A DNA stretch of 64,000 nucleotides from a virus: positions 186,367-250,366 of the IMG/VR virus record IMGVR_UViG_3300029288_006769; one strand, 5' to 3'. The translations under genes were made by a program, and so were the position numbers. Below are positions 42-23,281 of this stretch, one piece after another; position 1 is the first letter of the stretch; each line of letters starts with the position of its first letter. A model generated the notes under the pieces. That model was not told where the DNA came from. It made no database searches and saw nothing but the letters and a program-made list of their open reading frames with translations.

Positions 42-506
42 TTATTCATTTATTTCGATTTTAAAACAGTAAGGCTGATGTATAAGCATACTTACACCAT
101 CTGATGAAACATGATAAAACCCAAGTTTCTCTGGGCCTTCAACGAGATAACATAAATCTTTACGAACATTTGCAACAGTATTTTTTAAAATTCTAAGATT
201 TATAATGTTAATATCAAGTTCTGGAGGAATTATCAGTGTAGGGTTAACCAATTCTTCTATAATTGCACTTATAGCAAGTACTAATTCATCTTTTTTGTAA
301 GCTAAATCAAAACCAGAACACACATTCAGCATTGAAACAAACAAAAAATCTGTATGTATAATTTTTTCAAAATAATCGGGGATAATAATAGGAGTTATAT
401 CGTCACAAAAGCCTGACACTTTTGTGTAGAGCACTGGGATATCTGAAAATTTGTAATAGATTTTTGATTCCTGTTTTGCTAAACATTGCGTATAAAGTTC
501 ACTCAT
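42..506 (-). CDS. hypothetical protein
   Basis: 154-aa minus-strand ORF from the track, same orientation as all neighbours; no recognisable motif. Confidence 0.4.
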   Translation of the reverse strand: MSELYTQCLAKQESKIYYKFSDIPVLYTKVSGFCDDITPIIIPDYFEKIIHTDFLFVSMLNVCSGFDLAYKKDELVLAISAIIEELVNPTLIIPPELDINIINLRILKNTVANVRKDLCYLVEGPEKLGFYHVSSDGVSMLIHQPYCFKIEINE

Positions 507-550
507 ATAACTCCTTTTAGTTTTTTATATCTACAACCTCGTTTAGCATA

Positions 551-590
551 AACAAAAAAGGCGTTTATAGTTATACCTATAGAACGCCCT
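551..590 (-). terminator. rho-independent terminator hairpin
   Basis: GGCGTTCTATAG..CTATAAACGCC stem followed by a T6 run on the minus strand, directly downstream of the flotillin gene; near-identical copy at 2725-2762. Confidence 0.55.
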
Positions 591-612
591 CAATACGCTA
601 GAGAAATTCTCG

Positions 613-2085
613 TTAAACTTTGTCGGTATTTGTTTCGTTTGTACCGTCAAATAAACCTTTGGTGGTCACACCAATTTTGTTTAACAAGCCACTGATATCG
701 AATCCCATTTGACTCATGACTTCCTGGAGCATTCCGAGATTCTTTGGTACCTGACCTGCAAATTTTTGCATACCACTTTGACCATTTGCTGAATCGATAA
801 TAACTACTTTATCAATTGCAGAAAGCGGTTGTGCAGCTTCTCTTACAATTGCAGGGAATTTCTCTAATATGCTTGGTAATTTTTCGAGAATCATCTGAAA
901 TTGTCCTGCATCATCAAGCTGTTTGTAAGCTTCAGCTTTTTTCATAAGACCTTCAGCTTCACCGACGAGTCGGGCTTTTATTGCAGCACCTTCAGCTTCA
1001 CCAATTGCTAAAATTCTTGCGGCTTGTCCTTCACCTTCCAGAACTAATTTGCTCTTTTCGGCTTCAGCATTTTTGATTGTCGCACCTTTTTCACCTTCTG
1101 CTCTAGCAACTCTAGCTGCAGCTTCTTTTTCTGCGGGCACGACTTTTTTTGCTTGTTCTTCTTTTTCAGCAACAAGAATCATTTGTTCTTGAACTGCAAT
1201 GTTCGCTCTTTGACGAGCTTCTTCGATACCAACCTGAGCTTTTGTAACTTCCTGCATTGCTTCAGCTTCTGATCTTGGACCTGCTTGTTCTGCACGTGCT
1301 CTCTCGGCTGCAACCAATGCATCAAATGTTGCTTTTTTCACATCGCGTTCTTTATTAGCTTCAAATGTGAGAGCATCATTTTGTGCAGCAACAACATTTC
1401 CGTCTTTTTGAGCTGTAGTAGCTTGTTGTTTGGCTTCCTTGTCAGCATTTGCTTGACCAATAGAAGCGTCTCTCATAACTTCAGCAGTACGTTTCTTACC
1501 TAAAGATTCGATATACCCTGCATCATCAGTGATACTTTGAATATTTAAGATATCAATTCCCACACCAATTTTTCCAAGCTCGCCATCAGCTTCGGATTTT
1601 ACCTTGTTATTAAGAGCTTCACGATCTTTTATCAACTGTTCAATAGACATAGTACCAATTACAGAACGTAATTGGCCTTCAAGGTTTTCTTGAACTGTTA
1701 TATGGATGTCATTATCTTTTTTTCCCAAAAATCTTTCAACAGCAGCATTGAGCGATGCTTGATCGCTTTTAATTTTGCATGTTGCGACTGCATCAATGTT
1801 CACTTTGACGCCATCTAAGTTAGGGATCCCTTTAAGAGGCATTTTCAATTGAAAAGCCGCCATATCCATAACTTGATAGTCTTCAATAACGGGCCATTTG
1901 AATTTTGCACCGCCGGTTACAACAACAAAACCCTTGTCCAGATGTTTTCTTCCGAAAAACACTGCAGCTTTGTTAGGTGGTACTTTGATGTAATTTTTTG
2001 CAAGTAATGCAATTACAACAATTAATGCAACAACGGCTCCGACAACAACAATTAATGGTAAAATTTTTGAAAAATCAAAACCCAT
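613..2085 (-). CDS. flotillin-like SPFH/band-7 protein (YqiK/FloA family)
   Basis: N-terminal TM helix, SPFH domain, then a long Ala/Glu-rich coiled-coil flotillin repeat region; strong RBS AAGGAGATTAAAATG. Confidence 0.85.
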   Translation of the reverse strand: MGFDFSKILPLIVVVGAVVALIVVIALLAKNYIKVPPNKAAVFFGRKHLDKGFVVVTGGAKFKWPVIEDYQVMDMAAFQLKMPLKGIPNLDGVKVNIDAVATCKIKSDQASLNAAVERFLGKKDNDIHITVQENLEGQLRSVIGTMSIEQLIKDREALNNKVKSEADGELGKIGVGIDILNIQSITDDAGYIESLGKKRTAEVMRDASIGQANADKEAKQQATTAQKDGNVVAAQNDALTFEANKERDVKKATFDALVAAERARAEQAGPRSEAEAMQEVTKAQVGIEEARQRANIAVQEQMILVAEKEEQAKKVVPAEKEAAARVARAEGEKGATIKNAEAEKSKLVLEGEGQAARILAIGEAEGAAIKARLVGEAEGLMKKAEAYKQLDDAGQFQMILEKLPSILEKFPAIVREAAQPLSAIDKVVIIDSANGQSGMQKFAGQVPKNLGMLQEVMSQMGFDISGLLNKIGVTTKGLFDGTNETNTDKV

Positions 2086-2086
2086 T

Positions 2087-2653
2087 TTAATCTCCTTTTA
2101 AAGGCTTGACTATGCCAATATTTCCCGATACTCTAATGATTTCGACAATAGTACCCGAAGTAATTTGACACTCATTGTCTGATTGTACATCTAAAGAACG
2201 AACCTGTCCGTCAATTTCTGCAGTTATTTCTCCTGTTCCATGTTGGGGTATACCAACTCGTAAAGATGTTTTTAGACCAATAAATTTTTCGTTAGAAAAA
2301 AGCGAGGAAGATTGTTGTGACAAAAAGAATTTTATTATATACCAAGCACCTAACCCGATAAGTGAGCCTGAAAATAATCCAATTATTCCATCAACAAAAA
2401 GTTTCAAACTAACAAATTTTATTGCAAGGGTTAACCAACTATGTGATACGATTGCACCCATTCCAAAACCTACAAGAAAACATGATATGACCTTTGCAGA
2501 AAAAAAACTTGGGCTTATTGTGTGATCAACGCTGTGATCGAGCTCGATATGATGCTCTACATCGAAATGATCAAACCCGAAGACGAACGAAGTAAGCAAA
2601 AAAACGAAACCAGTTAAAAAAACACATAGATAGACAATTATAGCTGTATCCAT
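2087..2653 (-). CDS. NfeD-like membrane protein (YqiJ-like)
   Basis: multi-TM N-terminus plus C-terminal beta-barrel-like segment; 1-nt gap to the flotillin gene, the classic nfeD-flotillin operon; RBS GAAGGAAATATG. Confidence 0.7.
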   Translation of the reverse strand: MDTAIIVYLCVFLTGFVFLLTSFVFGFDHFDVEHHIELDHSVDHTISPSFFSAKVISCFLVGFGMGAIVSHSWLTLAIKFVSLKLFVDGIIGLFSGSLIGLGAWYIIKFFLSQQSSSLFSNEKFIGLKTSLRVGIPQHGTGEITAEIDGQVRSLDVQSDNECQITSGTIVEIIRVSGNIGIVKPLKGD

Positions 2654-2724
2654 ATTTCCTTCTTTCGTTAAAATTCTGTCTCATTGACACATTAAATTTA
2701 TATATTTAAGACTTTGTCTAGCAT

Positions 2725-2762
2725 ACAAAAAAGGCGTTTTATAGTTTCCTATAGAACGCCCA
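2725..2762 (-). terminator. rho-independent terminator hairpin (second copy)
   Basis: GGGCGTTCTATAGGAAACTATAAAACGCC plus a T-run on the minus strand; almost identical to the 551-590 hairpin. Confidence 0.55.
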
Positions 2763-2795
2763 AAGATGCTAAAAAGTTTCTTCTGTGACTTGCTT

Positions 2796-3047
2796 CTATT
2801 GTTTATTTAGAAGTTCTGTCAGTTTCTGTATTAGAGAGTTAGCAATGACTCCTTCAGCAGCTAGATCTCCTGCTGTATCAATTATACCTTCTATTGTGCC
2901 GGACAAATCTTGAGTTTTGCCGTCTGTTGTAGGAATCGTGACGACAAATTGGCCAGGCTTTCTTGATTTTTGTATCAAGATTTCCTCTGATGCAGTTACA
3001 AGAGAATCAAGAAAAGCTGACTCGTCAAATCTTGCTATCTTTTGCAT
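2796..3047 (-). CDS. hypothetical small protein
   Basis: 83-aa ORF with RBS GGGAGAAATATG. Confidence 0.5.
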   Translation of the reverse strand: MQKIARFDESAFLDSLVTASEEILIQKSRKPGQFVVTIPTTDGKTQDLSGTIEGIIDTAGDLAAEGVIANSLIQKLTELLNKQ

Positions 3048-3091
3048 ATTTCTCCCATCTTAAAAGTTTTTTCTGGAATAAATTACAGAGA

Positions 3092-3109
3092 TATAAAAAC
3101 AATACAAAT
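3092..3109 (-). promoter_or_regulatory. conserved 18-nt upstream motif (candidate phage promoter)
   Basis: plus-strand TATAAAAACAATACAAAT (minus-strand ATTTGTATTGTTTTTATA) 45-62 nt upstream of the 3047 start codon; identical 18-mer 41-58 nt upstream of the gene starting at 9129. Confidence 0.3.
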
Positions 3110-3223
3110 TATTGTTTTGTTCTCAATTTCTTTGATTTGCGGCATTGGTTACGGTTTGAACATTTCCCAGTCTCAAGTTCTAACATATAGACACACATCC
3201 ATTTTTCACCAAAGCACTTAGGT

Positions 3224-5065
3224 CTATTGATTTTCATTTTTTAATCTTCTGATAATCATACTTGACGCCGTAGATTCCTTTATAGTAATTGCTCTTTTCC
3301 ATTTATTTTTAAGTTTCCACCAGACAATTGCTTTCTGTATTTTATTCTTATTATGATCGTTCAATTCCCATTTCAATTGACCTGCAATCATTTTTGCAAA
3401 TTCGTCCTCGAGTTCTTTTTCTTTTGATTTTATTTTTCTTATCCAAAATAGTGTCGGGAGTATTCGCAAATAATTCTTACGATCAATGCGACTTTTCATA
3501 TAATAGTCAGCATCTTCTATAGAAACTTCATCAAAATTGACGACTTCATCACTATATAAATACCAAGGTACTCTTCTTTTCCGTTCTTTTTCTTCAAATG
3601 TCACAGGATCCCAAATCGTATCACCAGGTTTGTACCGTATTAAAATGGAAGTACCTTCCGGGAAATATTCCTTGGGCGATTCGCTTTTGAATGATTCTAC
3701 AACATAACAATAGTCTCTATATGGCGGGCAACTTGGCCGGAAAGGAGAACAACGCCATCTGTCATTATCTTTAGAAGAGAAACTGAAATAATTTTTTTGT
3801 GTAGAAATACATATTCTTGAGCCTAAATGAATTGTGCTCCTGTTATTCTTTAGATATTCGGACCAGCCAAGTCTACCATTACCTATCCAAAATTCTGTTT
3901 CGGCATCTCTTATAAATTTTACATGTTCATCCATATCGCTTCGAGGAGTCATTAAATTGACACCATGTTCTCTTAAATAAGTCCCTAGAATATCAGTTCG
4001 TTCAATCATGCCTTGGATTGCAATCAAACCATAGAGATAATTTTCATGTTTCCGTTGCAATTTTTCTTTGACATGTTTTTCACCCCATCTTTTTTCTGAA
4101 TTGACAAGATTTACATATTCATTTTTTTCAGGGAACAACAAATCACTTATACTAATATCGCTCCAGATTCGATAAAGTTTCGAACCATTGCGTATGAGAA
4201 AGTATGTCTGTTTGTTCCATTGATTGAATTGAACGTTGAGAAATTTGTCGCTATACTCTTTTTCATTACGACGCACTTGCCAAGCAACAACAGACAGGGG
4301 TTCATAAGCGAATGTTTTATAATTTTTCGCAATCCATTTATCGAATTGTTCAATGTCTTGGAAATCAAGACCTTGACCATCAGAATCATCCCAGATTCCA
4401 ACTTCTTCATCCATAAAAAGTTTTTGTTGAAATAAACTCAATGGTGTTCCAGAAGGAGCAGATTCTCCATCTGCTATCTGTACAATCTCTTCATGTAGTC
4501 CAAGATATGTTTCGATGATATATATGATTTTTTGTTTTTGCTTAAGCTCATCTTTAAGAATAGACATAGCCTGATTCATTTCGCTCATCATTTTTTCAAG
4601 TTCAGCTTTTCGACGAGCTATTTCGTCATGTTTTGCTCTGAGTTCGACTTTTGAATTAACTCTAGAAAGAGATTCAGCACTTGTTATGACAGGTAAAGTT
4701 TCTTGATTTTCTAGATTTTTACCTGGAATTTTGGGAGCTTCAAGCAAGTTTTTTTGTGGTATAAATTGACTAAAATCGACATTGATACATTCTTGTAAAC
4801 CGATTGTACCTATTCTTTTGTCTTGATCATCAAATATAGGAATTTTAGGGTCTGGAATTTTAAATTGATAAGAATATCTTGATAAGTCGCTATCATAGTC
4901 ACTTTCAAAACATCCTTCAGCATCTTTTTTAACATAAATCGGATCGACATATTTTTCTGGAAATAATACTGAAACTTTAAAAATTTTTATTGCATGATCA
5001 AAGTTTTTAGCCTCAATTAAAATATGTCTTTCATAAATATCATGTCGACCGAAACAAAACTTCAT
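3224..5065 (-). CDS. large hypothetical protein, N-terminal coiled coil and W/Cys-rich C-terminal domain
   Basis: 613-aa ORF, RBS AGGGGGGTGAACTATG; coiled-coil segment around residues 140-190; no motif I can name. Confidence 0.55.
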   Translation of the reverse strand: MKFCFGRHDIYERHILIEAKNFDHAIKIFKVSVLFPEKYVDPIYVKKDAEGCFESDYDSDLSRYSYQFKIPDPKIPIFDDQDKRIGTIGLQECINVDFSQFIPQKNLLEAPKIPGKNLENQETLPVITSAESLSRVNSKVELRAKHDEIARRKAELEKMMSEMNQAMSILKDELKQKQKIIYIIETYLGLHEEIVQIADGESAPSGTPLSLFQQKLFMDEEVGIWDDSDGQGLDFQDIEQFDKWIAKNYKTFAYEPLSVVAWQVRRNEKEYSDKFLNVQFNQWNKQTYFLIRNGSKLYRIWSDISISDLLFPEKNEYVNLVNSEKRWGEKHVKEKLQRKHENYLYGLIAIQGMIERTDILGTYLREHGVNLMTPRSDMDEHVKFIRDAETEFWIGNGRLGWSEYLKNNRSTIHLGSRICISTQKNYFSFSSKDNDRWRCSPFRPSCPPYRDYCYVVESFKSESPKEYFPEGTSILIRYKPGDTIWDPVTFEEKERKRRVPWYLYSDEVVNFDEVSIEDADYYMKSRIDRKNYLRILPTLFWIRKIKSKEKELEDEFAKMIAGQLKWELNDHNKNKIQKAIVWWKLKNKWKRAITIKESTASSMIIRRLKNENQ

Positions 5066-5215
5066 AGTTCACCCCCCTAAGAAATTAGGCTATTATATCT
5101 TAGGTTATATAGAACTATGCCAATAATGATCTATGGTGATTCAATTAGAATGTGCTAGACCGTGTCGTAGAAACAAACGTTAAACAACTCAACCCCATAT
5201 TTAATTGTTTAAAAC

Positions 5216-5833
5216 TTATTCAGGAAGCACTTGAATGATATCTCTCAATGCTTCGTTGATTGTAAGCAATTCAGTAGGACCACCTTCTTGGATTTCAGTG
5301 ATTCTCTGATTTGCTCTGTCAAGCAAAGCTTGTTTCTTGACGCAGGCAACTTTCATAGCAACCTGTAGATGACCCTTGACAAGTTCTACATCAACATTGC
5401 GTTGAAGAGCTGCAATGCCAATCGGGAAAAGACCATCAATAGAACATGTATCGACGGCATTGAGAAGGAGATTAGCACATACGTCAGCACCACAAGAAGC
5501 AATAGCTTGAATTCTATTTGTTTCTTCATTATGGCCATGACACATGCGTGCCCAGACAGTGTAACTATTTGGCGGGACTTCAACTTCAACATGGAATATT
5601 TTTTTACCAGTTACAGGGAGAATTTTAATTCTTGTTGCTCCCATGTAGTTGGGTAAAAGTGTTGCTGAGGCAACATGAGGATTTCTTGCCAAGATTCTCT
5701 GACAGACATCGGGATCTTTGTCTATCAGATATATCCCAGAGCAAGACACTAATACTAAATCCATTCTCCAAGCACTGCTAAGGACTTGACAATTCTTGTC
5801 CTTAACCCAGACGTTAAGTAATGCGTATGACAT
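5216..5833 (-). CDS. hypothetical Cys/His-rich protein
   Basis: start placed at the internal Met (MSYALL) because AAAGGAGTCATCATG is a strong RBS; contains CHGHNEE and several conserved-looking Cys. Confidence 0.5.
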   Translation of the reverse strand: MSYALLNVWVKDKNCQVLSSAWRMDLVLVSCSGIYLIDKDPDVCQRILARNPHVASATLLPNYMGATRIKILPVTGKKIFHVEVEVPPNSYTVWARMCHGHNEETNRIQAIASCGADVCANLLLNAVDTCSIDGLFPIGIAALQRNVDVELVKGHLQVAMKVACVKKQALLDRANQRITEIQEGGPTELLTINEALRDIIQVLPE

Positions 5834-5917
5834 GATGACTCCTTTTGATGGGGTTGAGTCAGCTTGATATTTTATAATAATAAACACAAAAAATGAAATA
5901 AAATTATTCTAGATATT

Positions 5918-6592
5918 CTAAACTAAAGTAGCAGCTGTAAATGACATTAAAGACCCGTAATAAAGAATATTATTAAGTGTATGATTTATTTTGTAATTGT
6001 TTAAGACTAAGTTGTTCAATAATGCTTCATTAGCAACTTGAGCATCTGTAAAGAAAAATAAAGTCGTGCCTATAGATGTAAATATTGCAACAGCAATATT
6101 GCCGTCTAAAAATAAAACATAGGATCTCCACACACTACAAAGTATGACAAGTAGATAGATAGGGACCAGTATCCCCATTATACCTTTTATTTTCCCTAAA
6201 AACAACATTGTGAAGATATATAAACCAAAAGCATATACTGCAAGCCCTATGCATATAGAATAACTTGAAAATGTCGGCTCGTGTATAAAGAAATTTATTG
6301 AGTTCAATATATGACATGCAAGAAAAGCAATTAGTCCAGCCATTAAATTTTTAATTATCAATAAATCTCCAATTAGAGCACAAAGTAGCATGAAATAAAT
6401 AAGAAAAGTAAAAAGCGAAATTTCTTCTGATAGCGATATAATTAGCAAGGGTATTAGAATTAGAATAGTCCGCCATAATTTTTGTTTTGAAATATCCCAG
6501 TCTTCGTATGGTTTGTAGACATAGTCAAGAATCGAGAACACGACGACAAGTGCAGCATTAACACCAAGCAAATACCATTGTATGTAAGTCAT
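5918..6592 (-). CDS. polytopic membrane protein (possibly YhhN-like)
   Basis: 224 aa with about 7 hydrophobic helices. Confidence 0.5.
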   Translation of the reverse strand: MTYIQWYLLGVNAALVVVFSILDYVYKPYEDWDISKQKLWRTILILIPLLIISLSEEISLFTFLIYFMLLCALIGDLLIIKNLMAGLIAFLACHILNSINFFIHEPTFSSYSICIGLAVYAFGLYIFTMLFLGKIKGIMGILVPIYLLVILCSVWRSYVLFLDGNIAVAIFTSIGTTLFFFTDAQVANEALLNNLVLNNYKINHTLNNILYYGSLMSFTAATLV

Positions 6593-6603
6593 TAAAAATT
6601 CTC

Positions 6604-7119
6604 TTATGGATATATTCTGTGAGTTCCTAAATATCTGGGCGTATAACCTTCATTTGCAATTTCAGACATTTTTTCATCGATGTCCTGAAGGTCTTTCTTG
6701 CTAAGTAAATCTGTAACATCAATATCACCAAAATATACTTTGAATTCTATTCCTAAGGAAGAATATTCATCGCCTCTGCTATCTATATATGGATCTGAAT
6801 AAGTATCTGTTATTTCAGCTTTAACAGGAACTTCAAATTCATCTTTTTCATTTTCTTTAAGATCATTTTTTTTCTTGTCAGTATAATAATCGATTACCCA
6901 ATCAGCTCCTTCACGAGAATATGGTTTTAAAGGCGAAACATCACAGGTCCCATCCTCATCTTCTTTTATATCAGCTACTTTTTTATCTTTCAAAAAAATA
7001 GCATTGTCTTTATAGACAAAAGGAATAACGACTTCGAAAATATCGTCATCATTTTTTCTTGATTTCATGTCTGTTGCAAGAATTTTGCAAATAGAACACA
7101 GTTCTGAATGTCTATGCAT
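6604..7119 (-). CDS. hypothetical acidic protein
   Basis: 171 aa, strongly Asp/Glu rich. Confidence 0.5.
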   Translation of the reverse strand: MHRHSELCSICKILATDMKSRKNDDDIFEVVIPFVYKDNAIFLKDKKVADIKEDEDGTCDVSPLKPYSREGADWVIDYYTDKKKNDLKENEKDEFEVPVKAEITDTYSDPYIDSRGDEYSSLGIEFKVYFGDIDVTDLLSKKDLQDIDEKMSEIANEGYTPRYLGTHRIYP

Positions 7120-7121
7120 AA

Positions 7122-7292
7122 TTAGTCCATCCTATACAGTTCTTTATCTAGTTCAGCAAAGTCGACAGGTTTGCCTGCAATGCCTTTAGCAAGATTTTTC
7201 GCTGATTCATCTATCATTTGTAGCGTATTTGCCGAAATCTGATCGAGCGCCTGTATTGTAGACTTCACATCGGTTTTTCTGTTATCTTTCAT
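7122..7292 (-). CDS. small ORF translationally coupled to the upstream protease gene
   Basis: 56-aa ORF MKDNRKTDVKSTIQALDQ...; its ATG overlaps the protease stop (ATGA); not in the track because it is under 60 aa. Confidence 0.35.
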   Translation of the reverse strand: MKDNRKTDVKSTIQALDQISANTLQMIDESAKNLAKGIAGKPVDFAELDKELYRMD

Positions 7293-8296
7293 AATGTACA
7301 ACCAAAAGCATTGAAAACATTATTTATTCTATTTACTATAGTAGTTGTGTCACTACCAGCAAATAAAAGACCTACAAGATAAGTACCCGAACAAACTGCT
7401 GAACCACTATCTCCGGGTTGACTAAACGAACCTTCTGAAGATGTTATTGATATTTGATCACTAAAAATAGCGGTCTTGTTTGTCCCATAACTTACTTGTG
7501 TTGTTACATCAATCTGATCAACTACACCTTTTGTGTATCCTGTTGTTCTACCCTGCTTATGAACTTCCATTCCTAATTCTATCTCTTTAACTCCAATAAT
7601 AGGGCCGATTCCTCTTATTTCTTGCAATACATCAGCTTCATTTAATGGCTTTGCAAGAGCAGCATCGACTAAATTTGTTGTTGCTTCTAAACTATAAGCT
7701 TTCAAACGGCTTTTTCTACCTAGAATAAATGAAAGGAAATTAAGAAAACCTGCACTACCTGTAGCAATAGGACAGTCAGTTCCTTGTAAACCATTTTCAA
7801 TAAAATTTACAGGTACAAATTCACTAAGTGTTCCAATTTGGTCTTTTTCAGTTCCTTTATCATAAGGCCCTGGTTGCAGTATTGCATCCCCTACTTTACC
7901 ATCATTACTATTTGCAAGTACATGATTGTTAGAAAGAATCATTAATTGTCCGTTTTTTCGAACAACACACCCAAGCGTGCCAGCTGTAATAGCATAATGT
8001 CCAATACTATCACCACCTAATGCTGGTCTCTGTTTTGTTGTATTGCTTTGAGCTTTTATGATTCCTGTTTGTACAACATCTGTGGGTATACCATTTATCT
8101 GCTCTGGGATAAGATCTTTTTCGGATAGTGATTCTTTGGTCTTCTTTTGTTCGACTGAACAAATAATAGAAAGTTTGTCGGTCTTTTTACCTTTAGAAGT
8201 CTTATAACCAATACCTAGACTTACAACATTGGCTTTCGACAATAAAACTTTTTTCGAAGCAACATCAAATCCTTTTCGAACATCATTGATATGCAT
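7289..8296 (-). CDS. trypsin-like (S1 family) serine protease
   Basis: GDSGSAV catalytic-Ser motif and an NHV His region; start moved to Met10 because of the RBS AAAGGAGACTATATG. Confidence 0.7.
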   Translation of the reverse strand: MHINDVRKGFDVASKKVLLSKANVVSLGIGYKTSKGKKTDKLSIICSVEQKKTKESLSEKDLIPEQINGIPTDVVQTGIIKAQSNTTKQRPALGGDSIGHYAITAGTLGCVVRKNGQLMILSNNHVLANSNDGKVGDAILQPGPYDKGTEKDQIGTLSEFVPVNFIENGLQGTDCPIATGSAGFLNFLSFILGRKSRLKAYSLEATTNLVDAALAKPLNEADVLQEIRGIGPIIGVKEIELGMEVHKQGRTTGYTKGVVDQIDVTTQVSYGTNKTAIFSDQISITSSEGSFSQPGDSGSAVCSGTYLVGLLFAGSDTTTIVNRINNVFNAFGCTL

Positions 8297-8340
8297 ATAG
8301 TCTCCTTTTTGAATGCATAACAAGATGTCTTATAAAAACT

Positions 8341-9129
8341 TTAAACAATCCTATCTGCTGAACCTAGTTTTGTGACATTATCGTCTACAATTCCTTGTAG
8401 AACAGAATCTGTAACTAAATTTCCAGATGATTGCACTGAGGCATTTATTGCTGCAAAGGATGTCATAGCTAAAGTATATTCATCTGGGTTCAACAAAGCT
8501 TTTGCTGCCCAAGATCTTCTGTCACTGTTATTGAGAGCGGCTACATAAGCGTCTCGTGTTGTCAAATATGTATTTACCAAATTTGTCACCATAGTCAACG
8601 TATTAGAACTTATTGATGCTATAATATTGCTTTCGGATGCAGCTGAATCTGCAATTGTAATATTTTGTCCTATGACAAATATTGAGCCGTCAGTGACAGC
8701 AACATCTTTTTGATTAGCATTAGCGTTGCCTGTAAGAGTAGAAACAGGTACAGCTTCTGAAAAAATTGAATTAGCTGCAATTATGATAGCAGAACGAATT
8801 CTTTTTCGTATTTCTGTTGATTCATAAATTTTGCTTATTGATATCAGTGTGTCTGTACCTACAACATTGTTATCAACATCATTTTTGCTTTCATTCAACA
8901 GATAATAAGCAGCTTCGCCACTCACACCTTCATTATAGACAACAAAATCAACATACTTGCTATTGACTACTGGTTTTATGCTTTTTTCTGAGTTGCCTGT
9001 CTCATAGACAAGCATAGAATAATGATTTATAGTCGTAGGTATATTGTTGTCATTTCTTTTACTACGAAAAGGACTTCCAACAAAAGTATAAAATGCAGTG
9101 ATCTCAGCAATAATTTCATTTTTTGTCAT
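8341..9129 (-). CDS. Ser/Thr/Asn/Ala-rich hypothetical protein (possible surface or structural protein)
   Basis: start at the internal Met (MTKNEII) with RBS GAAGGAATAACATTTATG; low-complexity beta-rich composition. Confidence 0.5.
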   Translation of the reverse strand: MTKNEIIAEITAFYTFVGSPFRSKRNDNNIPTTINHYSMLVYETGNSEKSIKPVVNSKYVDFVVYNEGVSGEAAYYLLNESKNDVDNNVVGTDTLISISKIYESTEIRKRIRSAIIIAANSIFSEAVPVSTLTGNANANQKDVAVTDGSIFVIGQNITIADSAASESNIIASISSNTLTMVTNLVNTYLTTRDAYVAALNNSDRRSWAAKALLNPDEYTLAMTSFAAINASVQSSGNLVTDSVLQGIVDDNVTKLGSADRIV

Positions 9130-9169
9130 AAATGTTATTCCTTCGAAGATGTGCGTAGAAAATGGGGAG

Positions 9170-9187
9170 TATAAAAACAATACAAAT
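9170..9187 (-). promoter_or_regulatory. second copy of the conserved 18-nt upstream motif
   Basis: identical TATAAAAACAATACAAAT at the same distance from a start codon as the 3092-3109 copy; direct repeats TAACTATTTCAT x2 lie just upstream at 9211-9243. Confidence 0.3.
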
Positions 9188-9253
9188 ATCAAAGCTAGAT
9201 AACTATTTCATAAGTTGTCTAACTATTTCATGCTATTGATGCAAGATGATGTC

Positions 9254-10117
9254 TTATAATTTTTTATTTATGAATTTATCTAAGGCAAGAACTAAAGAAT
9301 ACGTGAACATTGCACCAGCAATGCCAAACCATGGCGTGATTTCTACTGGATTATTAAAAATCCACGCCCATCTATTTGCCGTATAAGATAGAAAAACAGA
9401 ACTATGATGCGGGTTTCCTGCAGCATCAAATGTAAGATAAATCCACTGAGATGCCCATGAAAAGCCAGGGATTTTTGTAATCCATGTTACAGCAGCCCAA
9501 TCCCATAAAGCTGCAAACAAAACTATAAACAAGAAAAGTTTCAAATAATGTCGAGTGTCCCAAGTGTTCCATGCATAAAAAAATAAAGGTATTGATACCA
9601 AAGCAAATTGTAATGCAATAGATCTCCCTGCAACACTAGTAAAATAAAGAAAAAACATTGTAACAGCTATATGAAATATTTGAAATGCCCATTTTGACCA
9701 TTCAGAAGAAGTAAATCGGTTATGTAATAGTCTAAATATTGTATAGAAAAATGCCCCACAAACTGGATAAAACAGCCAGTCTTCTAAAGTCAAAATCCAT
9801 TCAGGCCCAACAACAGACCAAGGATGAAAAAGCCAGCCAGGAAATGTCGTATCAAATTTCTCCATATAGATTCCCCAGAACCAACCGCATATTGAGCCGA
9901 TGATCATATGAGGAATAAAAACTTTGAAATTCATTTTTGAACGTTTTGAGAACAACAGATAAGTAGTAATAAACGTAATGATAGCAACAATAATTGGATA
10001 ACCAAGAGCGACAATTTTTTGAAAATTATTTTTAGGTTCTCCATCTTTTAAAACGGAATCAAGAGCACCTTGTTCTTTTAACTCGTCATAACGCTGTTTG
10101 TTTGATTTTGAATTCAT
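9254..10117 (-). CDS. Trp-rich polytopic membrane protein
   Basis: 287 aa with many hydrophobic helices; ATGA overlap with the upstream gene. Confidence 0.55.
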   Translation of the reverse strand: MNSKSNKQRYDELKEQGALDSVLKDGEPKNNFQKIVALGYPIIVAIITFITTYLLFSKRSKMNFKVFIPHMIIGSICGWFWGIYMEKFDTTFPGWLFHPWSVVGPEWILTLEDWLFYPVCGAFFYTIFRLLHNRFTSSEWSKWAFQIFHIAVTMFFLYFTSVAGRSIALQFALVSIPLFFYAWNTWDTRHYLKLFLFIVLFAALWDWAAVTWITKIPGFSWASQWIYLTFDAAGNPHHSSVFLSYTANRWAWIFNNPVEITPWFGIAGAMFTYSLVLALDKFINKKL

Positions 10118-11124
10118 GTTGTACTCATTGTGATTATTGTCCCAGAATCAGGTATTGAACTGAAAATTACTGGAATATCAAATAATTCTAAAAGGTCAAT
10201 TGCTGATTTCAATTTGCTATTTGCAAATTCTTTACATTTCGTGTCAAAGCCCTTGCTATTATCGACAATTTCGATTGTTTTATTATTGAATTTTACTATT
10301 ATTTCCGTTGCCATATTAGAAATTGAGCTTTCAAAAATTACATATAAAACTAACAATAATGTATAAGAATCTATATCAAGTGTCTTAGTTGTCTGATCTA
10401 CATAAGAAATTGTTACGTTTTTTTGCATCGTATAAGAAATTGTCGAGCGTATTAAAGTAATCAAATGTCCAAAATTGCTTGTGTTGTTTTGTGCAATACA
10501 TGTAAGTTTTTCGATAAGAACTTGCATTCTTTCTTTATTTTGTTCATCAAGATTTCTTATATAGTAAGACATAGGTGTGATACATTGAATTATTTCATGT
10601 TTCAAAATTTTATTTGTTTCTAACAAAATTCTCTTGAATTTTGTTCCCGGGTCTAATTTAAGTCGTTGTCTTAACAAGAATAATATTGAGATTAGAAGTA
10701 CCATGCTTACCGAATTACATAATAATAGAACAGGGTAATCTAATGCTAAAATGCAATATAAAACCGTTTCGGCAATGGATAAGTAAATTAGAACATCATA
10801 TACTCTAGTTCTTTTTCGTAGATAGCAATATGTTATCAAAACACTAAATAAGACTTGGATAGGGTAACCATAAAACAATAATTTAGGAAACATGATGACA
10901 AGAAACAACACAGAAAGATTGTCGACATATATTCTTATTTCTAGTGATTGTTTTTTATTATCATTTTGCAGACAAAAAATTGTAGAGGATAAATTCAACA
11001 GAATTGTCAATGAAGCAATTATTCGAATATACATGCAATCATAAGAAGTTATGAATGCACACATGACACAGGCCCAAAGAATCGAAATAGAAACAATCAA
11101 AATATTTGTTATTCTTAAAAACAT
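10114..11124 (-). CDS. membrane-embedded histidine-kinase-like protein (AgrC/LytS-like topology)
   Basis: about 5-6 N-terminal TM helices; C-terminal region has an H-box-like KHEIIQ segment and a G1-like IEIVDNSKGFD ATP-lid motif; no response regulator nearby. Confidence 0.4.
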   Translation of the reverse strand: MFLRITNILIVSISILWACVMCAFITSYDCMYIRIIASLTILLNLSSTIFCLQNDNKKQSLEIRIYVDNLSVLFLVIMFPKLLFYGYPIQVLFSVLITYCYLRKRTRVYDVLIYLSIAETVLYCILALDYPVLLLCNSVSMVLLISILFLLRQRLKLDPGTKFKRILLETNKILKHEIIQCITPMSYYIRNLDEQNKERMQVLIEKLTCIAQNNTSNFGHLITLIRSTISYTMQKNVTISYVDQTTKTLDIDSYTLLLVLYVIFESSISNMATEIIVKFNNKTIEIVDNSKGFDTKCKEFANSKLKSAIDLLELFDIPVIFSSIPDSGTIITMSTT

Positions 11125-11129
11125 TTTAT

Positions 11130-11447
11130 CTATCCGATCGTTTTTTTGTATTTACAGTATCGTTTTCTTTTTTCTTTGAGAATACCTGTTCTACAATATC
11201 TTGAAGATTTAGTTTGATTATTTTCACAATCAGAACAAAGTATAGGTCTTGGGATTTTTTCGATTACTATTTTTGTGATATGTTTTCGAAGACATTTTGG
11301 GCAAATATCGGCTTCTTTCCAACGTATTCCATTACTACTTCTTATTTGAAGAACAGCAAGCCGATAATCATCTTCTCCAATCTTAAATTTGAACTCACTT
11401 TTGTCAAATATTGGAGTCTTACAAATGTCGCAAACTGTTACCTTCAC
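11130..11447 (-). CDS. zinc-ribbon protein
   Basis: CDIC...CPKC and CSDC pairs. Confidence 0.5.
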   Translation of the reverse strand: MKVTVCDICKTPIFDKSEFKFKIGEDDYRLAVLQIRSSNGIRWKEADICPKCLRKHITKIVIEKIPRPILCSDCENNQTKSSRYCRTGILKEKRKRYCKYKKTIG

Positions 11448-11470
11448 AAAGGGCTCCGAGAAGTCCCGTC

Positions 11471-12313
11471 TTATAAGATTTCTAATAGAGCAGCTTCTAC
11501 GTCTTGAGTAAGAGTTACATCACCCTCATCAAGCCCAAAGTGCTCAAGAATTGTATCCATAGTCAAATCGCAAAGTGCATCTTGCCAATCGCCAACAAAA
11601 TAATACCGAGTAGATTCCTTTATCACTCCACAAAGTATCGGATCTTTCTTCTCGGCTTGTGTTTTTTCGACAGCTTTGTTGTCCGGATCTGTATGTATTA
11701 CGACAAAATCATCAAATAACATTTTTTCTCTTGCAACTTCCATACGTTCACGAATATCTTTAGGAATGAGACGAATATAGTTTTTAATTGGAGTAATTTT
11801 GATTATTCGATTTTGAACGCTTTCAACAAAAGCTTGTAGTATTTCTTTTTCAAAATATTTGTCGAAGCCACATGCAATCATTTCTTGCTCTCTGAGAAAT
11901 TTTCCAAATTTTTCATGTATTTTTTCTTTTAAAGCGATCTGGTTTGTGATAGCGGTAGATTCGAGAATAGATGCGACTTTTTCGAGACGCTGAGATAGTT
12001 CACGTCTCTCCATAGGTTTGAATCTGTCTTTTAAAAACTTAAAAACGACAACAGGTTTTAGAAGATTTTTAATCCTATTTCTTGGATGATTTGCATCTTG
12101 TATAGCACCTTTTTGCTTTTTAGGCAATCGAATTGCTCGCTTTACCCATTTCTTACCATCATTATCAGATTTATCGGATTCGTCATCTGAATAATTTATT
12201 GAATCAGTGACATAAATACTTGTATCAGAAGGAGTAAAAAATGAAAAAGTACCTGAAGTAGATGCACTTGAAACATAATGACTACCGGAAGGTATTGTTG
12301 TCATAGATATCAT
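11471..12313 (-). CDS. hypothetical protein
   Basis: 280-aa ORF. Confidence 0.5.
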   Translation of the reverse strand: MISMTTIPSGSHYVSSASTSGTFSFFTPSDTSIYVTDSINYSDDESDKSDNDGKKWVKRAIRLPKKQKGAIQDANHPRNRIKNLLKPVVVFKFLKDRFKPMERRELSQRLEKVASILESTAITNQIALKEKIHEKFGKFLREQEMIACGFDKYFEKEILQAFVESVQNRIIKITPIKNYIRLIPKDIRERMEVAREKMLFDDFVVIHTDPDNKAVEKTQAEKKDPILCGVIKESTRYYFVGDWQDALCDLTMDTILEHFGLDEGDVTLTQDVEAALLEIL

Positions 12314-12639
12314 AGAGACTCCTTTATGAATTTTAGTTTATTCTGTTTTGGTTTGATAACAAGTTTTTCTGTATTATGACATTTCAAACAAATTTGCTTT
12401 GCTACAGATAAAACTCCATTACTGCAATGTTCTTGTCGCTCTTCTCTAAAATATTGTGTTCCTTTTGGTATTGGAGATCTGCATTCGCAACATTTCCAGT
12501 TTTTTCCTGCTTTGCATATTTTACCAATTGTTCGAGTTTTTGCTGCTTCATAGTATGCATCAATTAAATCTTTACGACCTTGACTTTTTACAAACTCAAA
12601 AATCTCTTCAAGTTTTTGGTGTTGTTTCTGGTAATGCAT
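12310..12639 (-). CDS. hypothetical Cys-containing protein
   Basis: 109 aa; CCECRSP...CLKCHN. Confidence 0.45.
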   Translation of the reverse strand: MHYQKQHQKLEEIFEFVKSQGRKDLIDAYYEAAKTRTIGKICKAGKNWKCCECRSPIPKGTQYFREERQEHCSNGVLSVAKQICLKCHNTEKLVIKPKQNKLKFIKESL

Positions 12640-13346: not shown

Positions 13347-13385
13347 CTCAACAGAAGAGCTGTGTGGCTCCATAAAGGAATTTAA

Positions 13386-13781
13386 TGGAGGCGACGGGAG
13401 TCGAACCCGTGTCCAGAAAACGATCCATGACAATCACTACATGCTTATCTCAGTTTTAATACTCCAACACACTAACTGGGCAAACAATGCTATTGGAGTG
13501 CAAGAACGTAACTTCGGTCCCCTTCTCTCTCTTGCGATTCGGATTCCCTATTCGTGTCTGTAAAAGATTCGGCTCACACGACTGCACCAGAATCTTTTGT
13601 TGCTTTTAATTAAGCAACGACTGAATTCGCAACACCCAAGCGAACATTGTTCGCAAAAGCGAGAGCGAATTTTACTGCATAATTGTTGGCAATTATGTTT
13701 TTCCGGATTTTTACGAGGCCATCCAGACCCTCGGCATGCGACTGGCAATTCACATAATCTGTCGAAAACCGATACGCCCCC
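13386..13781 (-). ncRNA. ssrA: tmRNA (SsrA), one-piece
   Basis: minus-strand 5' end GGGGGCGTATCGGTTTTCGACAG...GCATGCCGAGGG..TGGCCTCGTAAAAA.CCG.AAAAA matches the conserved tmRNA 5' domain; 3' end GGGTTCGACTCCCGTCGCCTCCA forms the T-arm and acceptor; the 7-bp acceptor stem has a G3:U70 Ala identity pair; resume codon GCC at nt 92; tag ORF ends at a TAA inside the TTGCTTAATTAAAAGCAA hairpin; CCA is not encoded. Confidence 0.85.
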
Positions 13782-13838: not shown

Positions 13839-15032
13839 TTATCCCACGGGCAAACCCGATAAGAATCCTTCCTTTTCTCCTATCAAATCTTTCATGCCTT
13901 TTTCTTTAATAGCATTGAACTGATCGACAAAAACGAAGAAGAGTCTCATAACTGATTCAGGTTTGTCTTTCCAATCAGAAACACTTAACGGATCGACAGT
14001 TAAACCCTGCAATATTTCAGCTCCTGCTCCAACACCAACTTCTGTTGTTCTTGGTTTTGGTGTACAGATACCACTGCCACCAGCTCTATATTGAACATCA
14101 GTTTGAATAGAATCAGCGCTTGCTGCACATGGAACAGCATTTGAAAAATAGGCTGTCGATCTGGGTGCTTCACACAATATTCCATCCGTTATTTGTGAAT
14201 CGACAACATCTGATATTGATCGTAATCTTAAAGCTCTTAAAGTTCCACTAGATTTTTTTAATGATTTTGTCGGGATTGAACTCGCAAAACAATCAGGGGA
14301 AATAGATTTTGAGTTGAAATTATAGGATTTATATTGGATAAATTCTGGTGCCCATGTTTGGCCGACAGATTCTGTCGATCCTTGGACTCCAGTAGACCCA
14401 TAAAGAACATCACTACTAAAAATTGGCGACTGTTGTGTAACACTGATATGCTTCTGGATAATAGCTTCACGCACAACTTTAGGTCTGTAAAAAGCAAAAC
14501 CGAAAGCAGGGACAGTATCTTCTTTACCTATTACAAGTTCAGGAACTGATTTAGCCAAATCCTCTGTAAAGAAAAACTGTCTTACCTTACCATCAGCAGT
14601 ACGGAACCCATCCCACCACAACTTATTAGGATAAGCTACATAGTTCTGATCAGGCCATTTAAAATTGCATTTTTCACAGAACAAACCATCTTTGAAGGGT
14701 TCATCGTGAATCGGACAGCGTTCTTTGTACCGTTCCAACATAAAACCATTTGTCCGTTGCCCCGTAATAGGATTCATCCCTTTGATTGATAGTAGAACGG
14801 CTGTATTTGTCCAGTCATTATCGGTGAAATCAAACCACAAACCCCAATCAGTATCCACAGGTACGACGTAATTTCCTGGGCCTGCAATCCATGACGGTAA
14901 AGGTTCTTTAAAAGCATCCACAGGATAAACATCGACAGGATTCCCAGGAGGTAAACTATGAGGACCGTCTCCCATTAGTCTTCGAGCTTTCATTATTCTA
15001 GCAGAAAAACCTGCATATTGCATTGTATACAT
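13839..15032 (-). CDS. conserved hypothetical protein, Trp-rich (possible virion protein)
   Basis: 397 aa; RBS TGGAGGAAATAATTTATG. Confidence 0.55.
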   Translation of the reverse strand: MYTMQYAGFSARIMKARRLMGDGPHSLPPGNPVDVYPVDAFKEPLPSWIAGPGNYVVPVDTDWGLWFDFTDNDWTNTAVLLSIKGMNPITGQRTNGFMLERYKERCPIHDEPFKDGLFCEKCNFKWPDQNYVAYPNKLWWDGFRTADGKVRQFFFTEDLAKSVPELVIGKEDTVPAFGFAFYRPKVVREAIIQKHISVTQQSPIFSSDVLYGSTGVQGSTESVGQTWAPEFIQYKSYNFNSKSISPDCFASSIPTKSLKKSSGTLRALRLRSISDVVDSQITDGILCEAPRSTAYFSNAVPCAASADSIQTDVQYRAGGSGICTPKPRTTEVGVGAGAEILQGLTVDPLSVSDWKDKPESVMRLFFVFVDQFNAIKEKGMKDLIGEKEGFLSGLPVG

Positions 15033-15063
15033 AAATTATTTCCTCCAAGTTTTTTAACAAAAC

Positions 15064-15096
15064 GAGCTGGCGCCATTAAAAAAAATGGCGCCAAAT
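15064..15096 (-). terminator. hairpin terminator
   Basis: perfect palindromic TGGCGCCA arms (15068-15075 and 15086-15093) around an A/T loop, downstream of the 15101 gene. Confidence 0.4.
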
Positions 15097-15100
15097 CAAA

Positions 15101-21030: not shown

Positions 21031-22299
21031 TTAAGTTGCAAAAGTTGCAATAAGAGGAGAAATGTATTGATTATCTAACAAATAATCTTCTTGCTTCATA
21101 GAATATAGACTTACTTTAATATTTGGTATTGTCTTAAAATAATCAAACATTAAAGAAGAGGTCTTGTTCTCCACAAGCTTAAAATCCCCATATACCATAG
21201 GTATTTTTCTATAACTCAAACCTTCAATCTTAATTAATTTTGCAGACTTTATATCGCGATCTTCTTCAAATCCACAAACATGACACTTAAACATTCTTTC
21301 ACTTAAAGTAAATTTTGTTTTTGAACTACATAAAGGACATATTTGCGTTGAAGGAAAGTAACGATCCACAAAAATTGTCTTAGATGTTTTTCTTAATTCA
21401 TCTAATATTCGTCCAATTATTGTAGAACTTATTTTTCTTCCATACAAACGTTGCCATCCTACTAAATTATCGTTTTGAATGCAAATAAAATCAAAATTGT
21501 TCTTTAAGTAACTAGTTATCTTGTTTGAGACATCTTCTTTTTGATTGTTTATTTTTAAATATTCTTTTCTGATTTTCATCCTGGACTTAAACTTGTTTTT
21601 AGAATTTCTAATTTGTCTAGAAATCTTTTTTTGTATTAATCTTATTTTATTGTTTTTGAAAGTAGTATCAATTTTAATTCCATTTGAAAAATTTAAAATA
21701 TTCTTAATACCTAAATCACATCCAATTGTTTGATTCGATATAGATCGTTCTTGTTTTTGTTGAAAAGTAGTAATATGAAAAAAGAAACTAAAAGGTTTTC
21801 TTATAAGTCTTATACTAGAAATTTCTGAATTTTCTGGTATTTGCTTTAATCCTCTTACTTTAAAAACTTTTTTATAATTTTCAATTTTTATCGAATTAGA
21901 TTTTACATACATATTACCTGGAATAGAATTTATTTCGCTTTTAAATTTTAATTTTCCTACTTTTTCGTTTTTTTTCTTTTTTGTTGCAAGTCCTTTTATA
22001 TTATAAATTATTTTTTGATAAATCTTTGCTCTCATAGAACTACTCAAATGTCTTAAATCTTTCTCTTCAAACTCTCTTTCTTTATTCATTACAGAAACTT
22101 TTTTTAACTTGCAATCAACAGAAAAAATATTTTTTTGAGATAAACAAAAATTATACCACCATTTTGCTTCAAGAAACAATCTGTTAAGAAATTCCAATTT
22201 GTCTTTTGATAATCTTGACATATCGATTTTTACTTCATAAATTTTACAAAGTTGTTTTTTTCTCTTTTCTTTTGTTGATTGACTTTGGATAAAAGACAT
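21031..22299 (-). CDS. tnpB: TnpB-like RuvC nuclease (IS200/IS605 OrfB family)
   Basis: N-terminal OrfB HTH-like helix (WWYNFCL); RuvC-I GCDLGIKN; RuvC-II region IQNDNL (Asp where Glu is usual); zinc finger CPLC..CHVC; RuvC-III DRDIKSAKLI. Confidence 0.8.
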   Translation of the reverse strand: MSFIQSQSTKEKRKKQLCKIYEVKIDMSRLSKDKLEFLNRLFLEAKWWYNFCLSQKNIFSVDCKLKKVSVMNKEREFEEKDLRHLSSSMRAKIYQKIIYNIKGLATKKKKNEKVGKLKFKSEINSIPGNMYVKSNSIKIENYKKVFKVRGLKQIPENSEISSIRLIRKPFSFFFHITTFQQKQERSISNQTIGCDLGIKNILNFSNGIKIDTTFKNNKIRLIQKKISRQIRNSKNKFKSRMKIRKEYLKINNQKEDVSNKITSYLKNNFDFICIQNDNLVGWQRLYGRKISSTIIGRILDELRKTSKTIFVDRYFPSTQICPLCSSKTKFTLSERMFKCHVCGFEEDRDIKSAKLIKIEGLSYRKIPMVYGDFKLVENKTSSLMFDYFKTIPNIKVSLYSMKQEDYLLDNQYISPLIATFAT

Positions 22300-22651: not shown

Positions 22652-22652
22652 T

Positions 22653-23050: not shown

Positions 23051-23051
23051 T

Positions 23052-23186: not shown

Positions 23187-23281
23187 GCGATATCCATAGT
23201 TATTTAAATATTAATGTAACATGTTTTAATATCTTTATTTGTTTTGATTAACATATTATTCTTCTATAGTCTTTTTTAAAT

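Follow-up and report, generated by a model that had tools for sequence, protein, structure and literature searches.

The 64,000-nt stretch of virus record IMGVR_UViG_3300029288_006769 analyzed here (hereafter the window) carries, close to its first letters and on the minus strand, a two-gene operon encoding a short NfeD-like membrane protein and a flotillin. The operon is bracketed by two near-identical intrinsic terminators, each of which forms part of a longer repeated element. An earlier reading of the letters alone (the original prediction) had taken the operon for a recently acquired, self-contained bacterial unit. Based on protein family searches, comparison with related contigs (designated by L-numbers such as L001, L008, L014, and L087), and the literature, we consider a different account probable, with moderate confidence. 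It holds that phages of ~425 kb have long carried this accessory operon, which is insulated as a unit, has borders that resemble the PeSL elements of T4-type phages, and plays a role in organizing membranes. The features on which this account draws are listed in Table 1.

The second gene of the operon encodes 490 amino acids (aa) and matches both Pfam Band_7 (PF01145; E = 1.9e-27, score 96.9 bits, cut-off 23.6) and Pfam Flot (E = 1.3e-7, score 32.2 bits, cut-off 27). The NCBIfam FloT model (NF058507) aligned with it from end to end, over positions 6–475 of 477, at a score of 224.7 bits, which falls short of the equivalog cut-off of 700 bits. Residues 37–476 align with human flotillin-1 and flotillin-2 (E = 3e-54 and 2e-48), and the order of domains is an N-terminal anchor, an SPFH/Band 7 domain, a coiled coil, and the flotillin C-terminal region. 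The hydrophobic anchor covers approximately residues 8–30, where 19-residue windows within residues 1–37 reach a Kyte–Doolittle mean of 3.4. A coiled coil rich in Glu and Ala had been noticed before, and it is borne out by residues 216–400, 56% of which are Ala, Glu, Lys, or Gln. Judged by these profiles, the protein is a true but divergent flotillin and not a FloT orthologue.

The 188-aa product of the first gene scored 16.9 bits against Pfam NfeD (PF01957) when searched singly, below the cut-off of 29.1, and its best sequence match in the PDB was YuaF, without significance (E = 0.66). An exhaustive HMMER search with this protein recovered 327 relatives. A profile of 50 family members matched Bacillus subtilis YuaF (2K14) with an E value of 2.5e-9, and 24 of the 50 match Pfam NfeD on their own. 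An AlphaFold model of moderate confidence (mean pLDDT 68.7) consists of long helices at residues 3–28, 48–73, and 81–117, followed by a C-terminal five-strand barrel that is OB-like, and hydropathy also backs the three hydrophobic helices. The top Foldseek matches were YbbJ from the Escherichia coli QmcA–YbbJ complex of SPFH and NfeD proteins (8Z5G; 1.7e-5) and YuaF (5.7e-5), and no protease family was matched in the Pfam scan. On the strength of the family profile and the model, the protein is best described as a short, protease-less NfeD. The loop after its first helix (residues 27–44, window 2540–2600) is rich in His and Asp (DHFDVEHHIELDHSVDH), and the family consensus retains a DHD...DHD..HD pattern there, which suggests metal binding.

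The two genes are co-oriented with nfeD first, and a single nucleotide separates its stop codon from the flotillin ATG. A Shine–Dalgarno sequence, AAGGAG, lies within the 3′ end of nfeD, ahead of the flotillin start. Because the junction is this tight and the ribosome-binding site lies inside the upstream gene, the two are translationally coupled.

The pairing of an NfeD-like protein with an SPFH flotillin, as originally predicted, is therefore upheld by Pfam Band_7 and Flot, by the NfeD family profile, and by Foldseek. Its assignment to the yqiJ/yqiK type is not, since the best specific matches are FloT and YuaF; in addition, none of the family members tested matched the YqiJ-specific Pfam family. 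By sequence and model, the pair is a better match to the yuaF–floT type. In B. subtilis yuaF (nfeD2)–floT (yuaG), as in the phage, the gene for a short NfeD with several transmembrane segments and a C-terminal OB domain directly precedes that for a flotillin whose SPFH domain and EA-rich coiled coil follow an N-terminal anchor. The likeness to E. coli yqiJ–yqiK and qmcA–ybbJ is looser. The phage pair differs from yuaF–floT in its carrier, a phage of ~422 kb, in a score of 224.7 bits against the 700 bits of the FloT cut-off, and in the His/Asp-rich loop of its NfeD. The dome built by eukaryotic flotillin-1 and flotillin-2 (9L3G, 9BQ2) has the same domain order as the phage flotillin (E = 3e-54 over residues 37–476). 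The phage, however, has a single protein of bacterial type, a transmembrane anchor rather than a lipidated hairpin, and an NfeD partner.

The two flanking hairpins are near-identical, as had been claimed for them, and the upstream one comes after an 83-aa open reading frame (ORF). On the plus strand both read AAAAAA-GGCGTTTATAG..CTATAGAACGCCC, and on the minus strand each stem is followed by six T. This geometry fits minus-strand transcripts only, because a GC-closed stem followed by six T is found on that strand alone. The fold energies are −15.8 kcal/mol for the downstream hairpin (z = −5.4) and −15.1 kcal/mol for the upstream hairpin (z = −5.35), and none of 200 shuffles folded as stably as either. 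One 14-nt stem arm is identical between the two hairpins, and a 13-nt stem motif occurs at these two sites only in 64 kb (0.3 expected). A simple terminator scan did not list them, their stems being bulged. Bracketing terminators of this kind would isolate the operon in this genome, which agrees with the self-contained unit that had been proposed.

The similarity between the two copies extends beyond the stems and spans ~90 nt in a local alignment. Both copies consist, in this order, of a TAGCAT box, the hairpin, the T-run, and a conserved block. A six-way alignment revealed a conserved block after the terminator, TATGCTAGACAAnGT..TA.ATATA(A/T)AAA, in which a TGCTA box is followed after 12 nt by TATA(A/T)A. 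The block is kept in four copies, from the window and L014, and the L001 and L008 copies have a diverged block that contains TGCT. Within the window, the 15-mer TATGCTAGACAAAGT is confined to the two elements, save for chance-level matches with three mismatches. We assign a candidate promoter to this block solely because it is conserved among homologous copies. RNAalifold recovered just the inner 5-bp stem from seven copies, as indels misaligned the outer stems, and the only Rfam match to the element was a sub-threshold one to U7, which we attribute to chance.

Four close lineages carry the operon: the window type, which was recovered from several samples; L014, with 87–94% DNA identity to it; L001/L015/L016, with 81% DNA and 91% protein identity; and L008–L013, with 81% DNA and 90–91% protein identity. 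The downstream element accompanies the operon in every lineage (window, L014, L001, and L008). At this position L014, L001, and L008 have a hairpin and a U-run, with stems that differ in sequence but are still paired; the outer stem of L001 and L008 (AUGAGCAUAUAGG..CCUAUAUGCUCAU) pairs equally well, at −16 to −19 kcal/mol. The upstream copy is found in the window and, in a diverged form, in L014, and there is none upstream of NfeD in L001 or L008.

The surroundings of the operon differ between these lineages at the elements themselves. In L001, L015, L016, and L008, NfeD starts 2 nt past the homologue of window ORF 12310–12639 with no upstream element, and in the L001/L015/L016 and L008–L013 lineages an epimerase and an acetyltransferase gene come after the pair. 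ORF 12310–12639 and the operon are separated in the window by eleven genes that fill 9.6 kb (2654–12310), and this block is missing from that place in the relatives. Homologues of the block genes 6604–7119 and 2796–3047 are located downstream of flotillin in L001. The displaced homologue of the 83-aa ORF, ~7 kb downstream of flotillin, therefore marks a rearrangement. The similarity between L014 and the window stops right past the TATA-rich block of the downstream element, and a 351-aa ORF absent from the window (L014 2535–3590) lies exactly between that element and the homologue of ORF 42–506. A second, degenerate element of like design follows the acetyltransferase gene in L015, which makes the epimerase/acetyltransferase pair element-bounded as well. 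Comparison of the contigs thus shows a small family of composite intergenic elements, terminator-like and promoter-like by sequence, at the borders of cassettes that were moved, inserted, or replaced.

The original prediction called the operon GC-richer than its surroundings and recently acquired. The first of these statements holds as a number: flotillin has a GC content of 39.3%, compared with 33.0% for the average gene, and ranks fourth among the 60 window genes. The excess, however, lies wholly at first codon positions (GC1, rank 1 of 60), which is high because the protein is rich in Ala, Glu, Gly, and Val, and genes of equal GC content occur elsewhere in the window, at 13.8–15 kb and 36–38.5 kb. 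At third codon positions (GC3), the 24.1% of flotillin compares with 23.5% on average (rank 26 of 60; z = 0.17). The synonymous-codon likelihood has a z of −0.78 for flotillin and −0.99 for NfeD, and window genes range from −2.9 to +3.5. GC content was dropped as evidence of foreign origin after this analysis by codon position, and the composition of the operon shows no sign of such an origin.

Divergence between the window and L001 gives a measure of how long the operon has been in place. Flotillin has a synonymous divergence (dS) of 1.07 and a ratio of nonsynonymous to synonymous divergence (dN/dS) of 0.053, and the dN/dS of NfeD is 0.154. Five neighboring genes have dS values of 1.1–3.2 and protein identities of 49–83%, compared with 91% for flotillin, the most conserved protein of its neighborhood. 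Since the synonymous divergence of the operon is like that of the backbone genes, it diverged along with the phage backbone. Read in this way, the sequences describe an old resident under strong purifying selection.

The nearest cellular flotillins are 52–56% identical and come from metagenome-assembled genomes (MAGs) labelled Spirochaetales, Parcubacteria, and Myxococcales; the next, at 41–44%, are from SR1, Acidobacteriota, Bipolaricaulota, and others. The genes around the Spirochaetales-labelled flotillin are clearly cellular and include an NfeD gene upstream of it. In a neighbor-joining tree, the nearest cellular flotillins are interleaved with those of other phage-like contigs. It had been proposed that the closest bacterial clade would point to the host, but the flotillins point to no donor or host, since their nearest cellular relatives are taxonomically scattered.

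Recent capture of a bacterial yqiJ/yqiK operon as a whole moron, which would have left foreign GC content and identical terminators as the scars of insertion, therefore seems very unlikely to us. It could draw on the GC content of flotillin, on the near identity of the flanking hairpins, and on the same two-gene arrangement in cellular genomes. Yet GC3 and codon usage are typical and the GC excess is confined to first codon positions, dS is ~1 as in backbone genes and dN/dS is 0.05, all four close lineages have the operon, and the closest cellular homologue is only 56% identical. Moreover, the downstream element is kept in every lineage and the upstream one is lineage-specific.

Though old, the operon does not appear to be indispensable. 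In L014, the closest relative, nfeD has a 1-bp deletion (L014 735–760, ~window 2427) and flotillin has a 131-bp deletion (window 2046–1916; L014 1120–1130) between 10-bp direct repeats TTGTTGTTGT. The remaining L014 flotillin sequence still has a dN/dS of 0.04, and the inactivation would therefore be recent. In L087, a more distant relative with backbone proteins 51–73% identical, the homologue of a 397-aa gene is separated from a tRNA array by ~3 kb, and this syntenic interval has no tmRNA, NfeD, or flotillin. The distance from the 397-aa gene to the array is ~8.5 kb in L008, and in the window it exceeds 13 kb without an array being reached. The tRNA arrays themselves are located a few kb past the flotillin region (L008 16058–20106, with 16 tRNAs; L087 19140–20368). 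From these comparisons, the region around the operon is hyperplastic, and the operon behaves as accessory cargo that is dispensable and variable in position.

Whether such cargo should be called a moron depends on the feature considered. In the Hendrix/Juhala definition, a moron is an accessory, non-essential unit, and the operon is like one in having its own terminator and in its variable presence and position between other phage genes, with a conserved block as candidate promoter. It differs in a composition like that of its neighbors, in its conservation across the clade, in the lack of any precise absence, and in the lack of evidence for lysogeny. Of the earlier claim that the operon is a moron, the part that stands is its accessory nature, seen in its different slot in relatives, its decay in L014, and the L087 interval without the pair. 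The part that does not stand is insertion of a distinct segment: the composition is not distinct, and no relative was found that lacks exactly the segment between the hairpins. L078 had appeared to be such a variant, and it proved to be merely a different gene call. The placement of the operon at the edge of the phage gene cluster also fails, given that other assemblies run past the contig end with further genes on the same strand and the locus is internal in the 426.9-kb relative, at 377–398 kb.

The closest precedent for the flanking elements is found in T4-type phages, where composite terminator–promoter cassettes are known as PeSL and PmSL (PMC2839356, Arbiol 2010; PMC4122927, Comeau 2014). 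Like them, the elements described here are repeated in a variable region and border genes that differ between close relatives through insertion, movement, or replacement; the stem-loop is directly followed by a block that is promoter-like. The layout of a TGCT box plus a "−10" recalls the Mot-box variant of PmSL. The differences are that the phage lineage is unrelated, that there is no canonical −35/N17/−10, that there is only a handful of copies, and that no mini-circle or deletion product was observed. At the least, the elements would appear to be portable expression boundaries, and, by analogy with the PeSLs of T4-type phages, they are probably also recombination points. The PeSL idea holds that portable regulatory boundaries drive modular shuffling, and terminator/promoter-like elements at the borders of cassettes in phages with no relation to T4 would extend it.

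The hairpins could instead be ordinary terminators of two adjacent units, made alike by local duplication or gene conversion and with no role in movement. We regard this as unlikely, though not far-fetched. Both hairpins have canonical terminator geometry, the window holds two copies only, and no excision variant was found; furthermore, the L014 upstream copy has diverged, such that the identity seen in the window could be the product of a recent conversion. Ordinary terminators would not lead one to expect a similarity of ~90 nt that includes the flanks outside the stems. Nor would they explain why three independent structural differences between relatives map exactly to the elements, namely the shift of the operon to another slot, the 351-aa ORF inserted in L014, and the element-bounded epimerase/acetyltransferase cassette.

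Another possibility, to which we assign a very low probability, is that the repeats are a small palindromic mobile element, similar to a miniature inverted-repeat transposable element (MITE) or a repetitive extragenic palindrome (REP), with terminal inverted repeats CTAGCAT...ATGCTAG around the hairpin. In both window copies, as in the L014 downstream copy, the terminator is indeed surrounded by an outer inverted repeat of 6–7 bp, but in L001 and L008 this repeat pairs weakly. Target-site duplications are absent, neither Rfam nor any other known family matches, and the 64 kb and ~100 kb of related loci contain no more copies.

Some results weigh against the account of a long-resident accessory operon with PeSL-like borders, and they should be kept in mind. 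A scan of the coding strand for sigma-70-type promoters, with a threshold of 9 matches out of 12, found none after either hairpin. No contig was found that joins the 83-aa gene to the 154-aa gene through one element, as an excision product would. The element copies are few, with two in the window and one or two per related locus, compared with the numerous PeSLs of T4-type phages. The lesions of L014 are known from a single metagenomic assembly. Finally, PADLOC returned no defense-system model for the two proteins or their neighbors. A bolder version of the same account has the elements as independently evolved recombination cassettes, analogous to PeSLs, that shuttle the NfeD–flotillin module from slot to slot within the hyperplastic region, and has phage flotillin cages remodel host microdomains (e.g. 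by enclosing FtsH or stabilizing the membrane) to sustain infection by so large a phage. We consider it doubtful in this full form.

The carrier is, by its gene content and size, a huge phage of ~422 kb. An identical flotillin sits on a 422,226-bp Joint Genome Institute (JGI) contig, 3300037067 Ga0378408_0000018, where window position 1 corresponds to base 1751. Relatives are found on contigs of 426,911 bp (3300048599 Ga0498940_0000195) and 423,981 bp (3300048574 Ga0498941_000133), which places the operon on contigs of 422, 424, and 427 kb as well as in further lineages. Among the gene products of the window are SbcC/SbcD, a UvsX/RecA-like recombinase, SSB, several helicases, a primase, a DnaB-like helicase, and TnpB. 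Several of its proteins match phage-only families very strongly (phrog_2426, 3e-121; phrog_2488, 2e-104; phrog_20754, 4e-67), and nearly all long ORFs across the 64 kb are on the minus strand. Neither ribosomal nor other core cellular genes are present in the window, and no virion genes were identified inside it.

A profile-derived scan of IMG/VR recovered one close relative only. The hairpin, searched as an exact gapped pattern, was found in no IMG/VR contig and in one metagenome contig, L014. A megablast search with the first 6 kb of the window had no match among GenBank phages. One of the source samples (3300014205) is probably from a landfill. A landfill virome includes a jumbo phage of ~421 kb with six CRISPR arrays and TnpB-like genes (PMC12607003), and by origin, size, and TnpB content it may be a relative or even the same phage.

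We give almost no credence to the view that the carrier is a small cellular genome and the operon an ordinary cellular one. It arises from the label "Candidatus Nanoarchaeia archaeon" on MAGs with identical proteins, and the absence of identified virion genes from the window is compatible with it. The label is itself unlikely, as the tmRNA is bacterial and the gene content, replication genes included, is that of a phage. The tmRNA reaches 147 bits, Shine–Dalgarno sites and intrinsic terminators are present, the three phrog matches are strong, and genes are almost all on one strand over 64 kb. In addition, a relative is listed in IMG/VR, three independent contigs measure 422–427 kb, and the window is without ribosomal or other core cellular genes. 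An identical 17.6-kb contig, JAQUND010000028.1 of assembly GCA_028717785.1, is binned at NCBI under the Nanoarchaeia name, and given the tmRNA and the phage replication genes it looks like a mis-binned phage fragment.

Returning to the accessory operon of a huge phage, we propose how it may be expressed and what its products may do. The upstream hairpin and T-run would halt transcription arriving from the 83-aa gene, and the TGCTA/TATA(A/T)A block past that hairpin is the candidate promoter of the operon. After coupled translation of the two genes, the second copy of the element would end the operon transcript and restart transcription for the next genes. The operon would be an insulated unit in this genome and would presumably be co-transcribed with upstream genes in the L001/L015/L016 and L008–L013 lineages. 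As in homologues with solved structures (FloT–YuaF, QmcA–YbbJ, and flotillin-1/2: 9L3G, 9BQ2, 8Z5G), from which we infer the arrangement, the flotillin probably oligomerizes by way of its SPFH domain and its coiled coil rich in Ala and Glu, giving a dome or cage that sits on the host membrane at its cytoplasmic face. NfeD would be embedded beneath this dome and would bind the scaffold through its C-terminal OB domain. Such a structure would most likely organize or stabilize the host cytoplasmic membrane, or corral a host membrane protein (e.g. a protease), during the long infection of a very large phage, and its role would be beneficial yet conditionally dispensable. The roles suggested in the original prediction, namely superinfection exclusion, receptor masking, and lysis timing, are conjectural.

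Flotillins are rare in other phages. Among 50,697 GenBank phage records, 11 have a detectable flotillin relative, with 28–35% identity, and two of these carry annotated flotillin family proteins, Vibrio phage KIT04 and phage csAssE-Sib. In csAssE-Sib, hhalign finds the transmembrane protein directly upstream of flotillin to resemble NfeD, at a probability of 91.5%. The small ORF upstream of flotillin in KIT04 was considered as an NfeD too, and comparison showed no NfeD likeness. Both phages are unrelated to the one studied here, the identity of 28–33% covers part of the protein, and no repeated element flanks the genes there. On phage-like contigs of 75 and 135 kb, which are among those interleaved with cellular flotillins in the tree, flotillin is preceded by an ORF of 178–200 aa, an NfeD candidate by position alone; the 135-kb contig also has an anti-Pycsar Apyc1-like gene.

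Flotillin and NfeD scaffolds are well studied in cells. In phages, to our knowledge, they have only been annotated and never tested. Of the papers listed in a search that combined jumbo phages with flotillin, not one names flotillin, and neither term, SPFH or NfeD, occurs in a large comparative survey of jumbo phages. Neither the NfeD–flotillin operon nor the PeSL-like borders are a new kind of system. Phage flotillins are rare, and this one is strongly conserved and functionally unexplored. Purifying selection in the clade, recurrence in other large phages, and loss in some relatives suggest a real but conditional benefit through manipulation of the host membrane.

Table 1. Features of the NfeD–flotillin locus and of other parts of the window (window coordinates)
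Feature	Position	Strand	Basis or remarks
Flotillin gene, 490 aa	613-2085	-	Pfam, NCBIfam FloT, and human flotillin-1/-2 alignments
Short NfeD-like gene, 188 aa	2087-2653	-	Family profile, Foldseek, model, and junction sequence
Downstream intrinsic-terminator hairpin	554-589 (stem-loop 560-589, T-run 554-559)	-	Just after the flotillin stop
Upstream intrinsic-terminator hairpin	2727-2761 (stem-loop 2733-2761, T-run 2727-2732)	-	73 nt before the NfeD start
Downstream element copy, full	517-610	-	Promoter-like block 520-550 TATGCTAAACGAGGTTGTAGATATAAAAAAC, ahead of the 154-aa ORF
Upstream element copy, full	2692-2781	-	TAGCAT box, hairpin, T-run, and promoter-like block 2696-2725 TATGCTAGACAAAGTCTTAAATATATAAAT
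154-aa ORF, function unassigned	42-506	-	Downstream neighbor; first gene after the downstream element
83-aa ORF, function unassigned	2796-3047	-	Upstream neighbor; homologue ~7 kb downstream of flotillin in 81%-identical relatives
YhhN-family membrane protein	5918-6592	-	Pfam, 3e-15; within the 9.6-kb block
Trypsin-like protease	7289-8323	-	phrog_20754, 4e-67; within the 9.6-kb block
tmRNA	13383-13781	-	Rfam RF00023, 147 bits, bacterial-type; tag peptide ANNYAVKFALAFANNVRLGVANSVVA
Strong terminator GGCGCCATT-TTTTTT-AATGGCGCC	15033-15100	-	Between a 312-aa ORF and the GC-rich 397-aa ORF (13839-15032)
TnpB/Cas12f-like gene	21031-22299	-	OrfB_IS605 and Cas12f1-like TNB domain

Several neighbors of the operon are envelope-related. 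Besides the YhhN-family protein and the trypsin-like protease, they include a pilin-like (prepilin-type) N_methyl protein just past the left end of the window (L003 12567–12863), and sugar-modifying enzymes are found in relatives.

Two independent assemblies, of 422,226 and 24,723 bp, share one end base, 2,362 nt past the flotillin stop. This point lies ~1.75 kb beyond the left end of the window (L005 ~10040), and in the contigs that run on, it falls just upstream of an HNH endonuclease gene. The shared end suggests a strain-variable site that breaks assemblies.

Farther into the window, the tmRNA has counterparts in L001 and L008, there with the tag VNKIAVNFALAFANNVRLGMANTIVA, and none was detected in the scanned 20.5 kb of L087. 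The strong terminator that follows the 312-aa ORF is unrelated in sequence to the two hairpins that flank the operon. Just upstream of the TnpB/Cas12f-like gene, at 22561–23194, there is a tandem duplication of ~400 bp (87% identity, spacing 399 nt), which overlaps two plus-strand ORFs of 132 aa.

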